From: Candidatus Aenigmatarchaeota archaeon
GTDB lineage: Archaea > Aenigmatarchaeota > Aenigmatarchaeia > QMZP01
Reading direction: 5' to 3'
NCBI GenBank assembly: GCA_016783545.1
Contig: JADHWJ010000002.1
Location: 1,617-65,616 of the forward strand
Length of the DNA stretch: 64,000 nucleotides
Shown here: in pieces, positions 20,790 through 52,001 of the stretch
Layout of the letters: each line of letters begins with the position of its first letter
Numbering within the stretch: position 1 is the first letter of the stretch
Position numbers and translations under genes: made by a program
Notes under the pieces: model-generated
Databases searched by the model: none
Seen by the model: the letters and a program-made list of their open reading frames with translations, nothing else
Told to the model about the DNA's origin: nothing

Positions 20790-21722
20790 ATGAAAACCGA
20801 AACAAACAGAGTTTGTAAATTAATAGCAGGTTTTGATATGGAATACGACATGCTGATAAGGAAGAAGTATTTGAAGGTTCAGGATAGGCTAGGCATGAGA
20901 ATAGGTATTCATGGCGGAACAAAGAAAATGCCTGTTCCAAGGACGGTTCAAGATGTTCTCAAAATTCTAAGAGAACTCTACAATATTGGCTTAAAGGCAT
21001 ACATATTACCAAAGGAGTTTTTTTCTAAGATAAAGGTTACAACAGATCTGTACACAACATATTACGGTGAGCTTCTAAAAATAAAGGATATAGCGAATAA
21101 ATATGACATTGAACTTAGCATTGAATATCCAAATCTTCCAGATCCTCCTGATGAAACACTGAAAATATTCATAACAATTGCATCTGTAATGGGATGCAGA
21201 ATGTTTATAGTAAGACCTGATTTCTATCCAATGGTTCCACAGGACCAGGCACTAAGGCTTACCGTCTATAAAATAAATGAGATTGTTTCTGAAGTTAATG
21301 CAAAAGCAAAAATCGGAATGGAAACAGCAGGGAAGATAGATGAATTAGGAAGCCTGGAGGACATTGTTGAAATAGCAAAAAGAACAAGGGAAACCAACAT
21401 TGTTATTAATTGGGGAAATATACATGCAAGGGGTTCTGGATCTTTGAGAACAACTGAAGATTTCGATAAGGTAGTAAAGAAGGTTTCAGAAGGTATAGGC
21501 GTAGGGTATTTCCGTGAAGCATTTTTTATATTCGGCGGAGTTTCATATGGACCATCTGGTCTTGTAAGGAAAATTCCTATAAAGAATTGTGACATGAAAC
21601 TAGAGGATCTGATAAAACAGATAATGACATATGGTATGAGAGGGACGCTTATTTTGGATGATCCTGGAAAGGAGCAATTTACACTCCAGATTCTGGATAG
21701 GCTTGCGGATACAGTAAGATAA
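20790..21722 (+). CDS. Endonuclease IV-like TIM-barrel protein with degenerate metal ligands
   Basis: ETAGKIDELGSLEDI, INWGNIHARG, GGVSYGPSG; true start may be 20838 or 20850. Confidence 0.7.
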   Translation: MKTETNRVCKLIAGFDMEYDMLIRKKYLKVQDRLGMRIGIHGGTKKMPVPRTVQDVLKILRELYNIGLKAYILPKEFFSKIKVTTDLYTTYYGELLKIKDIANKYDIELSIEYPNLPDPPDETLKIFITIASVMGCRMFIVRPDFYPMVPQDQALRLTVYKINEIVSEVNAKAKIGMETAGKIDELGSLEDIVEIAKRTRETNIVINWGNIHARGSGSLRTTEDFDKVVKKVSEGIGVGYFREAFFIFGGVSYGPSGLVRKIPIKNCDMKLEDLIKQIMTYGMRGTLILDDPGKEQFTLQILDRLADTVR

Positions 21723-22111
21723 TGAGTATTCTTAAACAATAATTTTTCTTTTTAAGTAACCAATACCAATTCAAGAGATATCAAAGCTCTTTTTGGCGTA
21801 AAACCCATTGAGCTTGTCCAACACATTTCACCAACTCATCAAGAGCTGGTTTAGAGAAGCTGTTTTCTTTCTTAGTTATCAGACTATCCTCTGTAAAGGA
21901 ACAATAGTCTTTTCTAGGTCTTCGGGAGCACTGTGTCCATTGGACTATGGCGGTAGAACATGGTAATGCCAATACGCAACCGTCCCATTGCAGCCATGCG
22001 CATAATTGGGAAATCGGTGGTGGCGGATTCTCTTTTCGCACCTCCCTTCTTGATGAAACCACTGACGCTTCGAGCAGTGCTATCCGAACTTTTTTTAGAA
22101 AGAGTTGGGTC

Positions 22112-22324
22112 ATGAATTACGTTGAGTGGAAGGTCAGAAACGCCCCAAAGAGGGAGAAGTGGTGGCAGAAGCTGCTTGCTATCATTATTCTTTGCTTGGG
22201 AGTAGCTCTCCTGGGCTGGCTTTTTGTTGATGCCTGGGAGAAGGAAGAGAGGTTCAGGGACGCCAGGCTGAAAGCGTTCCAAATAGAAAATGGAGTTGAC
22301 ATCAACGAAGTCAGCTCCAGATAG
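22112..22324 (+). CDS. Orphan single-pass membrane protein (70 aa)
   Basis: KWWQKLLAIIILCLGVALLGWLF TM segment; upstream start at 21947 also possible. Confidence 0.65.
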   Translation: MNYVEWKVRNAPKREKWWQKLLAIIILCLGVALLGWLFVDAWEKEERFRDARLKAFQIENGVDINEVSSR

Positions 22325-22408
22325 TATTGACACGACCCTCCCAACATAGAGAACAGTGTCAGTGCCAGAGATATGGGTTTGCCACAAGCTTACTCATACT
22401 CTGTTATA

Positions 22409-22425
22409 TTGTCATCTTAAAGGGA
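22409..22425 (+). repeat. Conserved site copy TTGTCATCTTAAAGGGA
   Basis: Directly upstream of GAAAAGGCTTATAAA promoter and ACTATAG-AACA-CTATAGT operator-like palindrome. Confidence 0.9.
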
Positions 22426-22462
22426 GAAAAGGCTTATAAACTATAGAACACTATAGTATACT

Positions 22463-22687
22463 ATGGAAACAACAACAATACAAATAACTGAGAATTTGCA
22501 AAATGAACTCAAATCCAGAAAAATATCAGAAAATGAAAGCTATGAAGAGGTTATATGGGATATGATAGAGGATACTATGGAACTTTCTGAACAAACCAAA
22601 AAAGATATAAGGGAAGCTGAAGAGGATATCAAAGCCGGTAGAGTTCATACACTTGAAGAGATTGAAAAGAGAATCAAAGATGATTGA
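22463..22687 (+). CDS. Antitoxin (DUF7557/VapB3-like), partner of RelE
   Basis: TTIQIT..ESYEEVIWDM..EEDIKAGRVHTLEEI; overlaps the toxin gene. Confidence 0.8.
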   Translation: METTTIQITENLQNELKSRKISENESYEEVIWDMIEDTMELSEQTKKDIREAEEDIKAGRVHTLEEIEKRIKDD

Positions 22688-22943
22688 AATGTATAATGTT
22701 ATTTTCTCTAAAAAAGCAGGAAAAGAGTTTGATAAATTGGAAAAAATAATTCAGAAAAGATTAGTTTCTGTAATCAAGAGGATAAGGATAAGACCTGAGG
22801 CTTTTGTTAGAAAGCTTGTCGGAGGACCTTATTATAGACTGAGAGTTGGTGAATACAGAGTAATTTTGGATATCAGAAAAGGAGAATTGATTATTCTGGT
22901 TATTTCTATTGGTCATAGAAGAAACATCTATAAGAGCCTTTAA
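22680..22943 (+). CDS. RelE/ParE family toxin
   Basis: YNVIFSKKAGKEF..YRLRVGEYRVI..IGHRRNIY. Confidence 0.92.
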   Translation: MIEMYNVIFSKKAGKEFDKLEKIIQKRLVSVIKRIRIRPEAFVRKLVGGPYYRLRVGEYRVILDIRKGELIILVISIGHRRNIYKSL

Positions 22944-22954
22944 TTTACTTAAAT

Positions 22955-22971
22955 TTGTCATTTTAGAGGGA
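22955..22971 (+). repeat. Conserved site copy TTGTCATTTTAGAGGGA
   Basis: 11 bp after the relE stop; followed by GAAAAAGCTTTATAAA and GTAAACA-AATA-TGTTTAC palindrome. Confidence 0.9.
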
Positions 22972-23017
22972 GAAAAAGCTTTATAAATATGTAAACAAAT
23001 ATGTTTACAGTGATTAT

Positions 23018-23254
23018 ATGGTTCAAGTTCAATTAAGAGTGCCAGATAATATGGTTAAGGATATTGATGGATGGGTAGAAGAAGGAAGATTCAAAAACAG
23101 AAGCGATGCTGTTAAAACAATTATATCTCTATATGAGGATAAGATGAAAACAATGGAATTCCTAAAAATGCTTGTAAATAGGAGCAAAGAAGCTGAAAAT
23201 AACCCTGAAAAATTGATACCCCTGGATGATCTGGATGTTAAAAGTTCTAATTAA
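23018..23254 (+). CDS. Ribbon-helix-helix (CopG/Arc/MetJ) antitoxin
   Basis: VQVQLRVP..IDGWVEEGRFKNRSDAVK. Confidence 0.88.
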   Translation: MVQVQLRVPDNMVKDIDGWVEEGRFKNRSDAVKTIISLYEDKMKTMEFLKMLVNRSKEAENNPEKLIPLDDLDVKSSN

Positions 23255-23308
23255 TAATAAAGCGAATTTTTACAGATATGCCTTGATCGGCATTATAGGA
23301 GGCATTGG

Positions 23309-23569
23309 ATGTTTAAGATACTTCTACACACTCTAAGTTTAAAATCTCTTGAAAAGCTGGATAAAGAAGTTCAGTTTCAAATAAGGAAGAAATTAAGAGA
23401 ACTTGAGGAATTTCCTGAACAAAGAGGTAAGCATTTAAGATATACACAATTCTGGAGTCTGAGAATAGGTGATTATAGAGCTATATATGAAATTAAAAAT
23501 AAAGAAGTTATTGTTCTTTTCATAGGTCATAGAGATAGAGTATATGATGATTTCTCAAAGATATTTTAG
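23309..23569 (+). CDS. RelE/ParE family toxin
   Basis: WSLRIGDYRAIY..FIGHRDRVY. Confidence 0.92.
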   Translation: MFKILLHTLSLKSLEKLDKEVQFQIRKKLRELEEFPEQRGKHLRYTQFWSLRIGDYRAIYEIKNKEVIVLFIGHRDRVYDDFSKIF

Positions 23570-23714
23570 ACAGACGATTTACTTAAATTTGTTTAAGCCT
23601 TTTAGAGGCAAATGAAACCTCCATTTAAACCAATAAGATCAAATGGAGAACCTACTGCCTTCTTTGGTTAAATCTTTTCGCAAAAGCCTTAAGTTCACCC
23701 AAAAACCCTTAAAA

Positions 23715-23731
23715 TTGTAATCTTAACGGGA
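23715..23731 (+). repeat. Conserved site copy TTGTAATCTTAACGGGA
   Basis: Followed by GAAAAAGCTTTATATA; same sequence at 52002. Confidence 0.9.
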
Positions 23732-24160
23732 GAAAAAGCTTTATATACCACTAATACAATTAATCTTATCTGTCACTATGTAATAGTGATAATTAAAGGG
23801 AGAACATGGGAGTAACTCATGTTCTATGAAACTTAAATAGAGTTGCAATGCAACCGAAAGTTTCATAAATAGTAATTACAAATAAAAGAGATCAGGTGTC
23901 AAATTTGTCCCGCAAGGGTGAATTTGGCAAACTCTCCCATCTTGGAACTGCCAGTTGGCAGTTCCTCTTGGACCATTGGTTGTAAAAGATCAATGGTTTT
24001 ATCCTTACAAACACAATTGAACTGGCTTACTATCTTCGGATATACCAGTTCAAACCGAGTGAATACACGGATTAAAGGGCCAAATTTTTCTAGTTCTGAG
24101 AATCTTCAATGATTTTCTTCAAGGTCTTTTGTCTGTCTACTCGGTAATTACATAATTGTT

Positions 24161-24500
24161 AGGGACAGGAAGCGGGGTCGGTAAAACCATCCCCGATTAC
24201 TATACATCGCAACGGTAGGAGTCGCGAGTCCGCCCGCAGTACCACGCCTAATGGCTGGTAATGGCCGGCATAATTCCTACCCGGGGTCGGAACCACCCCG
24301 CTTCCTCCCTTCGGCTTCTAAGGTATACAGCCCCCTTTAGAAGAATACACCGAAGGATTCAAACGGTTCAGGGGCAATGTGGTGCACCATAATATTACAT
24401 AGGAGTATATAGGTGCACAAGGACGCCGAAGGGAGTCCCGAAAATTTGTCGTACCTCACTATGACATATGGTGAGGCACTCGCGTCCTCTAAGAGGACAC
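24161..24500 (+). ncRNA. Candidate structured RNA / long leader
   Basis: AGGAAGCGGGGT pairs with ACCCCGCTTCCT and encloses GGTAGGA/TCCTACC; four more hairpins follow. Confidence 0.55.
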
Positions 24501-24546
24501 TGATGTTTCGCTGATGGAGTCTTTTTCACTGAAAGGAGTGAAAGAG

Positions 24547-25086
24547 ATGGAAGAAGAAAGACGGTCAGAAGAAAGAGCAGACGCATACGAAGAGTTGGGT
24601 GAGGTTGCTGTGCCCACACCCGAGACCGCGCCGGAACCCACGGGTGGGATCACGATCAGGTTCACTCGCGGGAACGTAGTTTCCGCATTGATCGGAGCCC
24701 TGATTTGTTTCGGGGTGATGTACCTGATCTCCGAGGGAAACGACCGGCGACAGGTCGACGAGATCACCGAGCTGCGCGAGGTCGGCCTGAAGCTGCACAC
24801 CCTGGCCCAGAAGGCGTTCGACAAGTGCCGGGATATCGAGGGCTACGAGCGGGCCACGTTGAAGGTCCCGGCGATTTTGGCAAAGGGGCAGAAGGTCGAG
24901 ACCGCACCGAAACCGAAGCCCCGACAGGTCGAGCCGGAGCCGCAGCCTGAACCGGTCTACGACGACCCGGAGCCCGAGGTCGTGGAGCCTGAGCCGGTCA
25001 CGACCAACGACGACCCTCGGACCGAGGATCCCCCACCCATCGCGAACGATGAGTTTGAGGATGGGGGCGACGAAGGCGGCGAGTAG
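24547..25086 (+). CDS. Orphan membrane-anchored protein with Pro/Glu-rich acidic tail
   Basis: AAAGGAG RBS; TM VVSALIGALICFGVMYLI; ELREVGLK motif; ends DEGGE. Confidence 0.8.
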   Translation: MEEERRSEERADAYEELGEVAVPTPETAPEPTGGITIRFTRGNVVSALIGALICFGVMYLISEGNDRRQVDEITELREVGLKLHTLAQKAFDKCRDIEGYERATLKVPAILAKGQKVETAPKPKPRQVEPEPQPEPVYDDPEPEVVEPEPVTTNDDPRTEDPPPIANDEFEDGGDEGGE

Positions 25087-25096
25087 TTTTCGCTGC

Positions 25097-25151
25097 AACG
25101 GGAGTCCTATAGGCCTCGGGACTTCCTTAACAAAATAAAGGGAGGCCTACT
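25097..25151 (+). repeat. 55-bp intergenic direct repeat, copy 1
   Basis: AACGGGAGTCCTATAGGCCTCGGGACTTCCTTAACAAAATAAAGGGAGGCCTACT identical at 26162-26216. Confidence 0.95.
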
Positions 25152-25190
25152 GATGGATGTTGACGTTCGACGGTAAGAAAGGGACACAAC

Positions 25191-26153
25191 ATGAGGACGA
25201 GAGCCCTCACGGCCGCGCTCATTTTCACGGCCGCAACCATAGGACTCGCTGGGAGCGCCCGCGAGCATTACAAGGTCGGCGTCCGGCACATGATTCAGGG
25301 GTCTGATGCATATAACCCCCGTGCCGCGATGGAGGCCTTCAGCAAGGTATGTGAAGCCGATCCCACGTACGGGAACTCGATTGGCTTTGCGAAGCCTGTC
25401 AAGGAGCAGCTGTTCAACGCTGCTATGGCGTACTTCTCCGAAGTTACGGAGTCAGAGATGACTCTGGAGAAGAAGTTGGAAGAGCTGACTGCGATTAGGA
25501 TTGCATTGTTCATGTGTAAGTCAGATCGAGGTCAGTTCTCAGAAGTTGACCAAAGTGGTCTGAACGCGAAGATCATGGCGGTCAACGCGGTAGCCCAACG
25601 GGTGCAGGAGGTCATTAGGGCGCAATCCCGACAGGCCGAGCCGGAGAAGTTCGACGCAGCCGCGACGATGCAAGAGGTCGCGACACGTTACGATACGGCC
25701 AAGCGAGAGCTGGCCTTCGCGTCTCAGCTCGTGGGAGAGGTCCTTGAACAGGACCCGGACCATGAGGAAGCGAATCGGGCCAGGGAGCTCCTTGAGATTC
25801 GCCTCATACCAGTGGATGAGTTCAATGAGCTCAATGCGACCGTCTCGTTGCTGAAACAGACGGTTAACGAGGCCGCGGACAAGATTCGCGAGGCCCGGCA
25901 GGATCACGCGCGCCGGGTCCTTTACTCGCGCGAGCTGCGCGAGGTCGGGCTGAAGTTTCACGAGCTCGCCGAGATCAGTTACAACAAGTGGCTGAAGTTG
26001 GCCAAGCCCGGAAGCGAGGCTCGGACGCTGAAGCTTCCGGAGGTGCTGGAATACGAGCCGTTCATCTCGGAGCAGGTCCTTGATCTGGTTCACGACGATG
26101 AGCAGCACGAAGGCGACGAGCACGAAGCCGACGACGACGAAGGCGGTGAGTAA
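25191..26153 (+). CDS. Orphan secreted helical (TPR-like) protein, paralog of 24547-25086
   Basis: Signal peptide MRTRALTAALIFTAA; ELREVGLKFHELA; ends DEGGE. Confidence 0.8.
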   Translation: MRTRALTAALIFTAATIGLAGSAREHYKVGVRHMIQGSDAYNPRAAMEAFSKVCEADPTYGNSIGFAKPVKEQLFNAAMAYFSEVTESEMTLEKKLEELTAIRIALFMCKSDRGQFSEVDQSGLNAKIMAVNAVAQRVQEVIRAQSRQAEPEKFDAAATMQEVATRYDTAKRELAFASQLVGEVLEQDPDHEEANRARELLEIRLIPVDEFNELNATVSLLKQTVNEAADKIREARQDHARRVLYSRELREVGLKFHELAEISYNKWLKLAKPGSEARTLKLPEVLEYEPFISEQVLDLVHDDEQHEGDEHEADDDEGGE

Positions 26154-26161
26154 CTAGCCGT

Positions 26162-26216
26162 AACGGGAGTCCTATAGGCCTCGGGACTTCCTTAACAAAA
26201 TAAAGGGAGGCCTACT
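26162..26216 (+). repeat. 55-bp intergenic direct repeat, copy 2
   Basis: Identical to 25097-25151. Confidence 0.95.
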
Positions 26217-26259
26217 TTGGACGTGAAGTTGGGACGTTTTCAGAAGAAGGAGTAGTACC

Positions 26260-26754
26260 ATGAGAGCGATCACGATCGCCCTTATCACCGTTGCCGGACT
26301 GTCGTTCATCGGGTCGGTCGAGGCAGCGGAGATCGATTTGGACGCCGCATTGGCGGAAGTGACGGCCGCGCCGGATACGACGGCCGCGCCGGTTCGGAGA
26401 AGTACCAGTGCCCAGAGGCCGGTGGTTCGGAGAAGCGCCACCAGGGTCGCATACCCGGCCGCTCAGGCGCATGCTGATGCCGCAGTCACGGACATTGAGT
26501 CCAGTATCACTGAGGCCGAGGCACACGGGCGTGTTCGCCGCGCCCAGGCTGATAGGGTAGTTTCCGCAGCAGAAGAGGCCGAGGCCATGGCAGATGCGGC
26601 GGCGGCTCGGGCCCGTAGGGCGCAGGCCGAGGCACGCTTCGAGGGTGCCCGGAGCGAATTCCATAGTGGTTGCAGCGATGCGGCTGCCACACAGTATCGG
26701 ACACATCTCCGGCGCGTGACCCGTGCCAGCGGAGGTCGGGTGCCTGTTCGGTAA
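26260..26754 (+). CDS. Orphan secreted Ala/Arg-rich coiled-coil protein
   Basis: GAAGGAG RBS; signal peptide MRAITIALITVAGLSFIGSVEA; internal 27-30 nt duplication (TTAAPVRRST/AQRPVVRRSA). Confidence 0.75.
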   Translation: MRAITIALITVAGLSFIGSVEAAEIDLDAALAEVTAAPDTTAAPVRRSTSAQRPVVRRSATRVAYPAAQAHADAAVTDIESSITEAEAHGRVRRAQADRVVSAAEEAEAMADAAAARARRAQAEARFEGARSEFHSGCSDAAATQYRTHLRRVTRASGGRVPVR

Positions 26755-26765
26755 TACCCGATCTC

Positions 26766-26809
26766 AACCTCCCCCTGGTGGCATACAACCAGCTTGCCAG
26801 GGGGAGGTT
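26766..26809 (+). terminator. 13-bp perfect hairpin (terminator or processing site)
   Basis: AACCTCCCCCTGG..CCAGGGGGAGGTT. Confidence 0.55.
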
Positions 26810-26879
26810 AGCGTCCTTAAAAAGCTGGTTTTTCACCAGACCAGTCAAAACAACGAGACCTTCTTGAAAGGAGGTTGTC

Positions 26880-27239
26880 ATGTGGAGAATAAGTACAGGC
26901 GAGCTGGCACTTTTGATCATCGGCAGCTTTGTTGCCGGTGCAGTTGTTGCCGGCTTTCTTAGTCGGTTGGTGCGGGGTCGAGGCAAGCCGTCTCCGGCAG
27001 CTCAGCCAGTGCCAGTGCCGAGCGAGTCGGAAGTCGTTCTGACGAAAAGGGAGCTGACGGCTCTGGTGAAGAGCCAGGTTGTTAGTGCTCTCAAGGAGAA
27101 GGAGCTGGGAGCACAGCCCGAGCCGATAGAGCCGCCGGAGTTGACCAAACTGTCGGTAGAAGAAGTGGTTGATGCAATACCCGAATCAATCACCGCCGAG
27201 AAGGAGGAGGAAGTACCCGAGAAAGGAGAAGACTCATGA
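26880..27239 (+). CDS. Orphan single-pass membrane protein
   Basis: AAAGGAGG RBS; TM LALLIIGSFVAGAVVAGFL. Confidence 0.75.
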   Translation: MWRISTGELALLIIGSFVAGAVVAGFLSRLVRGRGKPSPAAQPVPVPSESEVVLTKRELTALVKSQVVSALKEKELGAQPEPIEPPELTKLSVEEVVDAIPESITAEKEEEVPEKGEDS

Positions 27240-27826
27240 GGAATCTGAGTTTCGCCGCCATCATAGCGGCTCTCCTTCTTGTAGGTTGTGAGAGGGAGAA
27301 GAGTTCCAGCAGCCGAGGGCGCACAACCAGGCGCGCCGCCGATGGGGAGAAGTTGACCCTTCGGGACCTGCAGGCGGATCCTAACGGGTTCGCTATCGTG
27401 GACCCAGACCGCCGGCGAATGAAGCTCCCCATGAGCTTCAGAATCGTCAGAGCCATGGACGGCGGGTCCGGTGAGGAAGTTATGCTGGTCGCTTATCTTG
27501 GGGGTGAGGAGAGCCCCAGCGATGAGCAGGACGGGGTTGAGGAAGATGTACCGCCGAACTATGTTCTCGTCCGGGTTCGGCGGGCGTGTGGTGTAGATCT
27601 CCTTGGCGGGGAGACGAACGCCAACTGCCGCCTCTTTGTGAAGAAGTTCGAGCGCAAAGGGACGGTGGAGATGGGCGATCACGGTGACGAATTGTATGTA
27701 ATCACGGTCGCTCGCGGGGACATCTACTACAACTACGACGTCATGTCCCTGAGCGGCGATAACATGACGGATACGGTTGAGCGAGACCGGCCGCCGGATC
27801 CGGTGCGGCACCACAGCTACCCGTAA
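27236..27826 (+). CDS. Orphan putative lipoprotein
   Basis: MRNLSFAAIIAALLLVG-C lipobox; ATGA overlap with the previous gene. Confidence 0.75.
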   Translation: MRNLSFAAIIAALLLVGCEREKSSSSRGRTTRRAADGEKLTLRDLQADPNGFAIVDPDRRRMKLPMSFRIVRAMDGGSGEEVMLVAYLGGEESPSDEQDGVEEDVPPNYVLVRVRRACGVDLLGGETNANCRLFVKKFERKGTVEMGDHGDELYVITVARGDIYYNYDVMSLSGDNMTDTVERDRPPDPVRHHSYP

Positions 27827-27989
27827 GGGAAATGAATACCAGGTCCCTCCCAAGGGGTGGAGGGGCCTGGTGGCCTCTTGAGAGAAAGGAGATGAAAATC
27901 ATGTTGTGACGCCTTTCACAAAAACAACACAATGTTGAGGGTACGGCAACAGTACCAGAAAGGGAGTGGCGCCCCACAGTTGCTTTATG

Positions 27990-28025
27990 ATGTCTTTTTA
28001 ACGGTATATACCATTAACTTGACTG
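27990..28025. repeat. Two degenerate conserved sites head-to-head (27990-28006 +, 28009-28025 -) around palindrome GGTATATACC
   Basis: ATGTCTTTTTAACGGTA and CAGTCAAGTTAATGGTA, each preceded by a hairpin. Confidence 0.7.
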
Positions 28026-28060
28026 AGTAAAGGGGAAGTTGTTCCCCTTGTAATTACTCC

Positions 28061-28993
28061 TTATTTGATTTGATTCAGCTCTTCGTGAAAGCTTCTCCCA
28101 GCAGGGACCATGTCGTCTGTAACCCTGGGGTACTTCTCCCTTTTCTGTAGCAGACGGTTGGTGGCCTCTTCGAGTCGGTGTTTGAGCCCTTGCATGGGCT
28201 CATAAGAGGGCCTGGGCCAGATCAGGATACCACCATCCTTGAGAGAGTATGTGAGTCCGAAGGGCTCAAGGAGTATGGTTAGTATGGCACCAACAGACCC
28301 TTCGAGGCATTCCACCTGCTCGATCTTGATATGGTCCTCCCTATTGACCATCAGGTCGAAGGTCACCTTAAACCCCCCAATATCAGCTAGACCACTCACC
28401 AACTCTTCGAGTGTGATTGAAAGAGGGCTGGGCTGGAAGGTTATTTCCTTATCGAGCTTCTTCAAGAGATCGATCTTCCAACGCTGCTCTGAACCAAACT
28501 CTTTTTCCAGGTCCTCGTCCACCTTCATCTGGTAGAGTTTGTTGCAGATCTTAGTCCTCTCTTCAGCTGCTCGGAGTTGGGTAAAGAGCCGTGCCTCTCT
28601 CTTATTACGGGGCTCTTCCACAGCACTCTTCAGACTAGCTTTGGCTGTTTTGAGCTGTTCCTTAAGGCTCGCTTCAGTTGTCTGATACCCTTCGACCCTT
28701 TTGCGGAGATCCTCGAGCTCCTTTTGGGCTTGGTCCCTTTCCCCCTCTGCGATTCGGAGCATCTTGATGAAAGGGCCGTTGTGCTTGGCCTTTTCGAGTT
28801 TCTGGTTCTCTGCTGAGAGTCTCTTTACCTCGGTTCGAAGCTCAGCGAGCTCAGGTTCGTACTTGGCTTTCAGCTCTTCTCGAACCCGGTTTTCACCTTC
28901 CTTTACGAGCCGACTGACCTCCTCTTGGAGACCTAGATCACCCGCAAAGGCCAGTGCTGTGAAGCATAGTGATACAGCGATTCTTCTGTACAT
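28061..28993 (-). CDS. Secreted coiled-coil protein with STN/secretin-N-like domain
   Basis: Signal peptide MYRRIAVSLCFTALAFAG; TLEELV..ILTILLEPFGLTYSLKDGGILI. Confidence 0.75.
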   Translation of the reverse strand: MYRRIAVSLCFTALAFAGDLGLQEEVSRLVKEGENRVREELKAKYEPELAELRTEVKRLSAENQKLEKAKHNGPFIKMLRIAEGERDQAQKELEDLRKRVEGYQTTEASLKEQLKTAKASLKSAVEEPRNKREARLFTQLRAAEERTKICNKLYQMKVDEDLEKEFGSEQRWKIDLLKKLDKEITFQPSPLSITLEELVSGLADIGGFKVTFDLMVNREDHIKIEQVECLEGSVGAILTILLEPFGLTYSLKDGGILIWPRPSYEPMQGLKHRLEEATNRLLQKREKYPRVTDDMVPAGRSFHEELNQIK

Positions 28994-51950: not shown

Positions 51951-52001
51951 ATAGTAAGATTGTCTTACTTACTTATAAATGTTGCATGAAATTGCCTAAT
52001 T

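Follow-up and report, generated by a model that had tools for sequence, protein, structure and literature searches.

A candidate structured mRNA leader at the head of an apparently foreign, G+C-rich gene block in a DPANN-type archaeon

The host of the locus described here is a small, AT-rich archaeon of the DPANN type, whose assembly comprises 886 kb in 18 contigs and is 70% complete, with the G+C content of the contigs ranging from 33 to 39%. The analysis covered a window of 64 kb (the whole stretch of DNA that was analysed), corresponding to positions 1617-65616 of contig C12. Within it, a gap of about 980 bases without a credible gene lies between a RelE/ParE-type gene, which ends at 23569, and the ATG at 24547, where a bacterial-style block of five genes begins. 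No ORF longer than 45 aa is found within 24161-24500, and comparison of the gap with the genome itself and with the paralogues of the island revealed no pseudogene remnant. The gap and the start of the block are organized as follows, where the folds, like all structure statements made below, are thermodynamic predictions:

23715-23750, plus strand: native promoter-like site, TTGTAATCTTAACGGGAG then GAAAAAGCTTTATATA (BRE/TATA-like)
23771-23791, plus strand: operator-like palindrome TGTCACTAT-GTA-ATAGTGA, placed where transcription is expected to start
23797-24145, plus strand: AT-rich, ORF-free array of nine hairpins, including GCAA and UUCG tetraloops (z to -7.4)
about 24161-24310, plus strand: domain 1, an irregular, rod-shaped hairpin with 49 pairs and a closing stem of 11+5 bp
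about 24305-24435, plus strand: domain 2, a three-way junction closed by CUCCCUUCGGC/GCCGAAGGGAG (10 bp)
24447-24512, plus strand: two hairpins (24447-24466 and 24470-24512), the latter holding GUCCUC-UAA-GAGGAC
ATG 24503, plus strand: mini-ORF of three codons (MFR, stop) within the hairpin part 24447-24512
24519-24548, plus strand: hairpin of 12 bp whose loop contains GGAG, the ribosome-binding site, and whose 3' foot carries ATG 24547
24547-25086, plus strand: gene 1, an orphan membrane/acidic protein of 179 aa, with the same ATG called in a second assembly
24547-27826: the five-gene bacterial-style block

The G+C content jumps from 32% to 58% within a few bases at 24161 ('...acataattgtta|GGGACAGGAAGCGGGG'), and domain 1 starts exactly at this switch from AT to GC. 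In the genes of the island, GC3 is 0.58-0.77 as against 0.2-0.3 in native genes, and the codon-position pattern is that of real genes; judged by these sequence features, the five genes are of bacterial style and were horizontally acquired from a source of high G+C content. They carry signal peptides, a lipobox-like LVGC or N-terminal anchors and transmembrane segments, together with Shine-Dalgarno sites. None of the five proteins gave a Pfam match above the family cut-off. In a word-indexed search of 5.8 billion proteins, genes 1 and 2 returned only themselves and gene 5 only near-identical (99%) copies, and a full HMMER search of 1.84 billion representatives likewise gave only the self-match for gene 2. 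The gene-5 protein led to two contigs of other ENA assemblies, both of which cover the same locus. One of them covers positions 21243-28915 of the window, from which it differs at a single base out of 7673, and domain 1 is identical in the two. Since both island junctions are reproduced in an independent assembly, the block is not an assembly chimera, and this possibility was ruled out. The second copy comes from the same strain; hence, no covariation can be obtained from it.

The block is one of about 25 segments of foreign composition in the genome, with G+C contents of 50-69% and GC3 up to 0.88, which are distributed over contigs C1, C2, C5, C6, C7, C11, C12, C13, C14 and C16. A conserved 17-mer, TTGTCAnTTAAnnGGGA, stands at one end only in 16 of these 25 segments. 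In the island tails that were written out, a G+C-rich stretch, often a hairpin, is followed by a TTTATA-like linker and then by the 17-mer. At the opposite end, at least seven of the heads written out are leaderless, with a GGAG-type ribosome-binding site and a start codon at their very beginning or within a few bases of it; the block studied here (island 6) is unusual among them, as 386 non-coding bases come first. A left half-site common to the island heads was considered and rejected, ATTGT being found in only 2 of about 15 heads written out. No rRNA was detected in the 18 G+C-rich regions scanned, one of which is a tRNA cluster. The cargo of other islands includes two bacterial N-methyl pilins (C6 4270-5429), an M54 peptidase with a signal peptide (C2 13251-14192) and sugar isomerases (C1 16967-23668), namely a xylose-isomerase-like TIM barrel and a fucose isomerase. 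The genome also holds one gene for a Y1 (IS200/IS605-type) transposase and three tyrosine recombinase genes (loci C8:31430-31795, C11:942-1433 and C7:39821-41411), none of them near the islands examined.

Upstream of the compositional switch, the gap is of native character. The motif TTGTCAnTTAAnnGGGA, followed by ATATA, a TATA-like box or GAAAAAGCTTTATA, occurs in 45 copies in the genome, and examples in the window lie at 1292, 8574(-), 13654(-), 14588(-), 22404, 22950, 23715, 27990, 28030(-), 39574(-) and 51997. In the copies inspected, start codons follow about 53-68 nt downstream, and the motif therefore looks like an extended archaeal promoter. Yet for tail-to-tail pairs of the motif (27990/28030, for example) there is no gene that such a promoter could serve. 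Among 47 genomes of the family, matches to the gap were confined to 23708-23789, which spans the promoter site and the adjacent operator palindrome; the folded stretch had none. The palindrome recurs at the sites 51997(+) and 8574(-), both of which precede start codons; at 23771-23791, what follows is only a 7-codon frame, and the folded stretch begins at 24161, 390 bases downstream of the native promoter and operator. Between them lies the AT-rich array, with a predicted energy of -129.7 kcal/mol on the plus strand versus -101.3 kcal/mol on the minus strand, 15 G-U pairs (plus) versus 7 (minus), and a run of five T residues at 24086-24090. The array may itself represent a distinct native RNA, about 315 nt long.

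An earlier note on this DNA had described 24161-24312 as a compact multibranch RNA enclosed by a 12-bp helix AGGAAGCGGGGT (24167-24178)/ACCCCGCTTCCT (24295-24306). This helix is present, as is the inner pairing GGTAGGA/TCCTACC (24214/24275). The outer extension that had been proposed was found as AGGG/CCCT, but not as a 12+5 bp stem, because T24306 would be used twice; the stem is thus either 12+4 or 11+5 bp. Two further inner helices of the drawing were lost on calculation of the thermodynamic ensemble, in which both GTCGG/CCGAT and GCTGG/CCGGC have a pair probability of about 0. GTCGG (24177) shares 2 nt with the closing helix, and the two pairings are displaced by CCCCG/CGGGG (p 0.95) and UACCA/UGGUA (p 0.985). 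The fold as drawn scores -43.5 kcal/mol, compared with -72.6 kcal/mol for the minimum free energy fold. From the displaced helices and the poor score of the drawn fold, domain 1 is predicted to be an unbranched irregular rod, with 49 pairs and 0 branch points in the model, and the multibranch description was abandoned. On comparison with shuffled sequences, the same stretch gave z -5.2 on the plus strand and -4.3 on the minus strand, and z -4.2 with DNA parameters; the energies on the two strands (-72.6 kcal/mol on the plus strand and -75.5 kcal/mol on the minus strand) show no strand preference.

In the predicted fold, the real three-way junction is domain 2 and not domain 1. The pairing TTCGG..CCGAA, earlier taken for a separate hairpin, does occur, but within the 10-bp helix that closes domain 2. 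The domain (24305-24435) has z values of -5.2 (plus) and -4.8 (minus) and energies of -46.8 and -48.5 kcal/mol, respectively, again without a strand preference. UCCCU at 24306-24310 can pair with AGGGA at either 24161-24165 or 24430-24434, and with these two possible partners domains 1 and 2 compete for five bases. Further downstream, the hairpins GTGCACC..GGTGCAC, CCTCAC..GTGAGG and GTCCTC..GAGGAC were found as previously noted. Directly behind the closing helix of domain 2 lies GAAAATTTGTCGTACC (24436-24460), a sequence similar to the linker and the initial half of the motif at the island tails, as seen for instance in TTTTTATTGTCGTGTAAGAGGGATA at C1 19445. From sequence, domains 1 and 2 might be a separate non-coding cassette with a decayed tail site.

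The expectation that the stretch would fold better than shuffled controls was borne out, with z about -5 for each of the two domains and, for the whole gap (23775-24550, 776 nt), z -9.4 on the plus strand and -6.8 on the minus strand (-289 versus -259 kcal/mol). It had also been proposed that G-U pairs favour the plus strand. This holds for the flanking parts, including the final hairpins before the start codon, where the plus strand is preferred, but not for domains 1 and 2; hence, the strand argument fails for the core of the finding. Because the domain boundaries had been picked on helices, the island was rescanned with fixed windows. Domain 1 then reached z -5.3, a value equalled or beaten elsewhere in the island:

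26700-26870: spacer, z -7.5
24420-24580: end of the leader, z -6.8 (24440-24569)
25470-25600: coding stretch, z -6.6

Among the windows that start at 24560 or further downstream, about 5% have z below -4. By these predictions, the structure is real but unexceptional for the island, every spacer of which is folded. As the other spacers are equally structured, ordinary operon RNA structure fits better than a special aptamer.

The searches for relatives agree with the earlier statement that the stretch is not a 5S, SRP or RNase P RNA. No Rfam match at the gathering score was obtained in the 64-kb window, and at E up to 10 on 23500-24600 nothing overlapped 24161-24500. The archaeal SRP RNA of the genome sits on contig C15 (RF01857, 131 bits), outside the window contig, and RNase P RNA (RF00373) gave no match anywhere in the 70%-complete assembly, 24161-24500 included. 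ARAGORN found 0 tRNA or tmRNA genes in the window. The absence of homologues had been named beforehand as a point that would count against the element, and none was found beyond the same-strain copy. DNA homologues of the folded stretch were detected neither in the genome itself and 40 relatives nor in phage and plasmid records, and a covariance model of domain 1 recovered only itself in its own genome and 91 genomes of the order. Pattern scans, in which the two closing helices served as queries, returned two unrelated palindromes from genome contigs and one iteron-like repeat from viral contigs; in metagenome contigs, nothing matched the first helix, and the second had 9 matches, each of them unrelated inside. 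The suggestion of a specific class, riboswitch or ribozyme, thus found neither a family match nor a homologue, and hence no covariation.

Several other known classes were considered and rejected. A generic riboswitch does not suit the gene context, the downstream genes encoding orphan exported or membrane proteins without Pfam domains or a metabolite link. An integron attC site is contradicted by the lack of R'' (RYYYAAC) and R' (GTTRRRY) cores, the arms being AGGGACAGGAAGCGGGGT and ACCCCGCTTCCTCCCT, by the location at the head of the block and by the dispersed islands. A MITE- or REP-like repeat was dismissed, as the element is single-copy in its own genome by BLAST and covariance model and has no flanking direct repeat. 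For a retron msr-msd, closing repeats are present, yet the downstream ORFs have no RT or other Pfam domain. Inspection by eye revealed no A-specific repeat differences of the kind expected for a DGR, no 3-nt bulge pair as in a bulge-helix-bulge motif and, with regard to a hammerhead, the core CUGAUGG instead of CUGAUGA.

The preferred reading, adopted tentatively and at somewhat less than even confidence, is that 24161-24546 is a candidate structured 5' leader of the mRNA of a horizontally acquired operon. Transcription would most likely be initiated from the native promoter and operator, near 23.74-23.79 kb, and traverse the AT-rich hairpin array before entering the foreign block. The leader would then consist of the 150-nt rod, the 130-nt three-way junction, two small hairpins and the hairpin whose loop contains the ribosome-binding site; the folded RNA may stabilise the foreign message and set the level of translation of the first gene. 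This is consistent with a stretch that is non-coding, folds better than shuffles and starts at the compositional switch, with downstream genes that are coding, foreign and equipped with Shine-Dalgarno sites, and with junctions that do not depend on the assembly. The upstream promoter and operator are of the same kind as those that drive the genes at 51997 and 8574, both the flanking parts and the gap as a whole favour the plus strand, and the other spacers of the island are structured to an equal degree. However, the T5 run could end archaeal transcription before domain 1, most other G+C-rich islands start directly at a Shine-Dalgarno site and ATG and need no leader, and there is no homologue to show selection on the structure. 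Moreover, domains 1 and 2 have no strand preference and fold as DNA too, and they could therefore be DNA-level palindromes. That domain 1, perhaps with domain 2, is such a foldback, brought in with the foreign block and without an RNA function, is considered rather unlikely, and the same applies to the particular forms envisaged for it, namely a palindromic terminus or a short inserted palindrome, either REP/MITE-like or acting as a hairpin signal in recombination or in single-strand replication. Its position exactly at the compositional junction and its equal folding on both strands and as DNA argue for it, as do the hairpin-bearing 60-nt repeat of the island, which is better conserved than its flanking genes, the tyrosine recombinases and Y1 transposase encoded in the genome, and the 17-mer, which stands at one end only of the 16 segments and often has a hairpin directly before it. 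On the other hand, the element is present in a single copy without a target-site duplication, the other island heads share no hairpin or motif with it, it has no attC-type cores, and no recombinase gene is located in its vicinity.

Domains 1 and 2 may instead be a separate cargo RNA, stable, non-coding and about 280 nt long, made alone or cut from the long transcript, though the chances of this are put rather low. The two closed domains stand back to back, each with z about -5, the same genome has other ORF-free G+C-rich islands and a tRNA cassette, and at C13 22515-22650 there is a similarly built structure that clearly prefers one strand. Yet no promoter-like TATA is located directly upstream of 24161 and no terminator behind domain 2, and both the missing strand preference and the lack of a homologue or family tell against a cargo RNA. 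It is also unlikely, to a slightly greater degree, that the pairing has no function and is an unselected by-product of the origin of the foreign DNA, for example through local inverted duplications. Perfect 10-mer inverted repeats with a spacing of 40-220 nt number 25 in the genome against about 35 expected by chance (our own estimate), an island coding stretch reaches z -6.6, and the island is an orphan without conservation, all of which would suit such an origin; two adjacent closed domains with further hairpins that together give z -9.4 over 776 nt, and the structure in every island spacer, speak against it. A riboswitch or self-cleaving ribozyme, with domain 1 as the sensor and the alternative UCCCU pairing as the switch, is highly improbable. 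The mutually exclusive pairing exists, and the ribosome-binding site is held in a downstream hairpin, but no Rfam match was seen even at E up to 10, no homologue is available for covariation, domain 1 is predicted to be a rod with no junction to form a pocket, and the exported orphan proteins downstream offer no link to a metabolite. Very unlikely, too, is the broader proposal that domains 1 and 2 are a working part of an undescribed capture system, by which foreign genes and RNAs are placed beside the 17-mer TTGTCAnTTAAnnGGGA in a DPANN lineage; in such a system, the domains could serve either as non-coding cargo or, at the head end, as a hairpin signal for insertion or transcript processing.

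G+C-rich islands of non-coding RNA in AT-rich archaeal genomes were reportedly described by Klein, Misulovin and Eddy in 2002. The stretch studied here resembles them in being G+C-rich, ORF-free and strongly folding against an AT-rich archaeal genome, but it is not conserved in relatives and its G+C richness extends into the downstream coding genes; hence, this richness marks foreign DNA and not RNA structure. In bacterial operons, 5' leaders and intergenic stem-loops, such as the ompA 5' UTR and the REP/BIME palindromes, stabilise mRNA or gate the ribosome-binding site. The leader proposed here is similarly placed between a promoter and the first gene led by a Shine-Dalgarno site, its last hairpin holds the ribosome-binding site, and the spacers are structured; it differs in that the host is an archaeon, that the leader is very long, with about 770 nt between the predicted start and the gene, and that it is single-copy and its folds are computed. 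Ghaly et al. (2022, PMC9668308) reported integron cassettes and attC hairpins in Archaea, together with transfer across domains for lineages that include the Nanoarchaeota. The islands are like such cassettes in that foreign, promoter-less, bacterial-style genes led by ribosome-binding sites are present in an archaeon, with imperfect inverted repeats at the borders. Unlike them, domain 1 lacks R''/R' cores and lies at the head and not at the tail, and the islands are dispersed, with no array beside intI; the conserved element of the island tails is, unlike attC, a 17-mer of fixed sequence. Taken alone, the stretch adds one more orphan leader known from computed folding. Its value is that of a marker: the very small archaeal genome contains about 25 islands of foreign composition and bacterial style, and the stretch sits exactly at the left junction of one of them. 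If it is processed into a stable RNA, a non-coding type of cargo would be added to an apparently recent uptake of genes across domains by a DPANN archaeon; if not, it would be an ordinary operon leader structure.

Structured spacers of this kind were also encountered elsewhere. The closed multi-stem structure at C13:22515-22650 lies between two genes of another island, with z -4.7 on the gene strand versus -2.9 on the other; its closing helix is ACAGCCC.CGCC/GGCGGGGCUGU, and it has no sequence likeness to the structure at 24161. The C13 island, too, is preceded by a promoter site with a palindrome, TGTCACTA (C13 21850). Within the block at 24547-27826, the 60-nt repeat occurs at 25092-25151 and 26157-26216 with 97% identity, behind two paralogous genes that are 72-75% alike. 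It can fold as GGGAGUCC/GGGACUUCC, or as TAGGCCTC/GAGGCCTA, which covers a strong AAAGGGAGG site, and each copy is followed by a mini-ORF, starting with ATG 25153 (MDVDVRR, stop) and TTG 26217 (LDVKLGRFQKKE, stop), respectively. The most strongly folded stretch of the island, 26700-26880 (z -7.5), is situated between the third and fourth genes and contains a perfect hairpin of 13 bp, AACCTCCCCCTGG/CCAGGGGGAGGTT.
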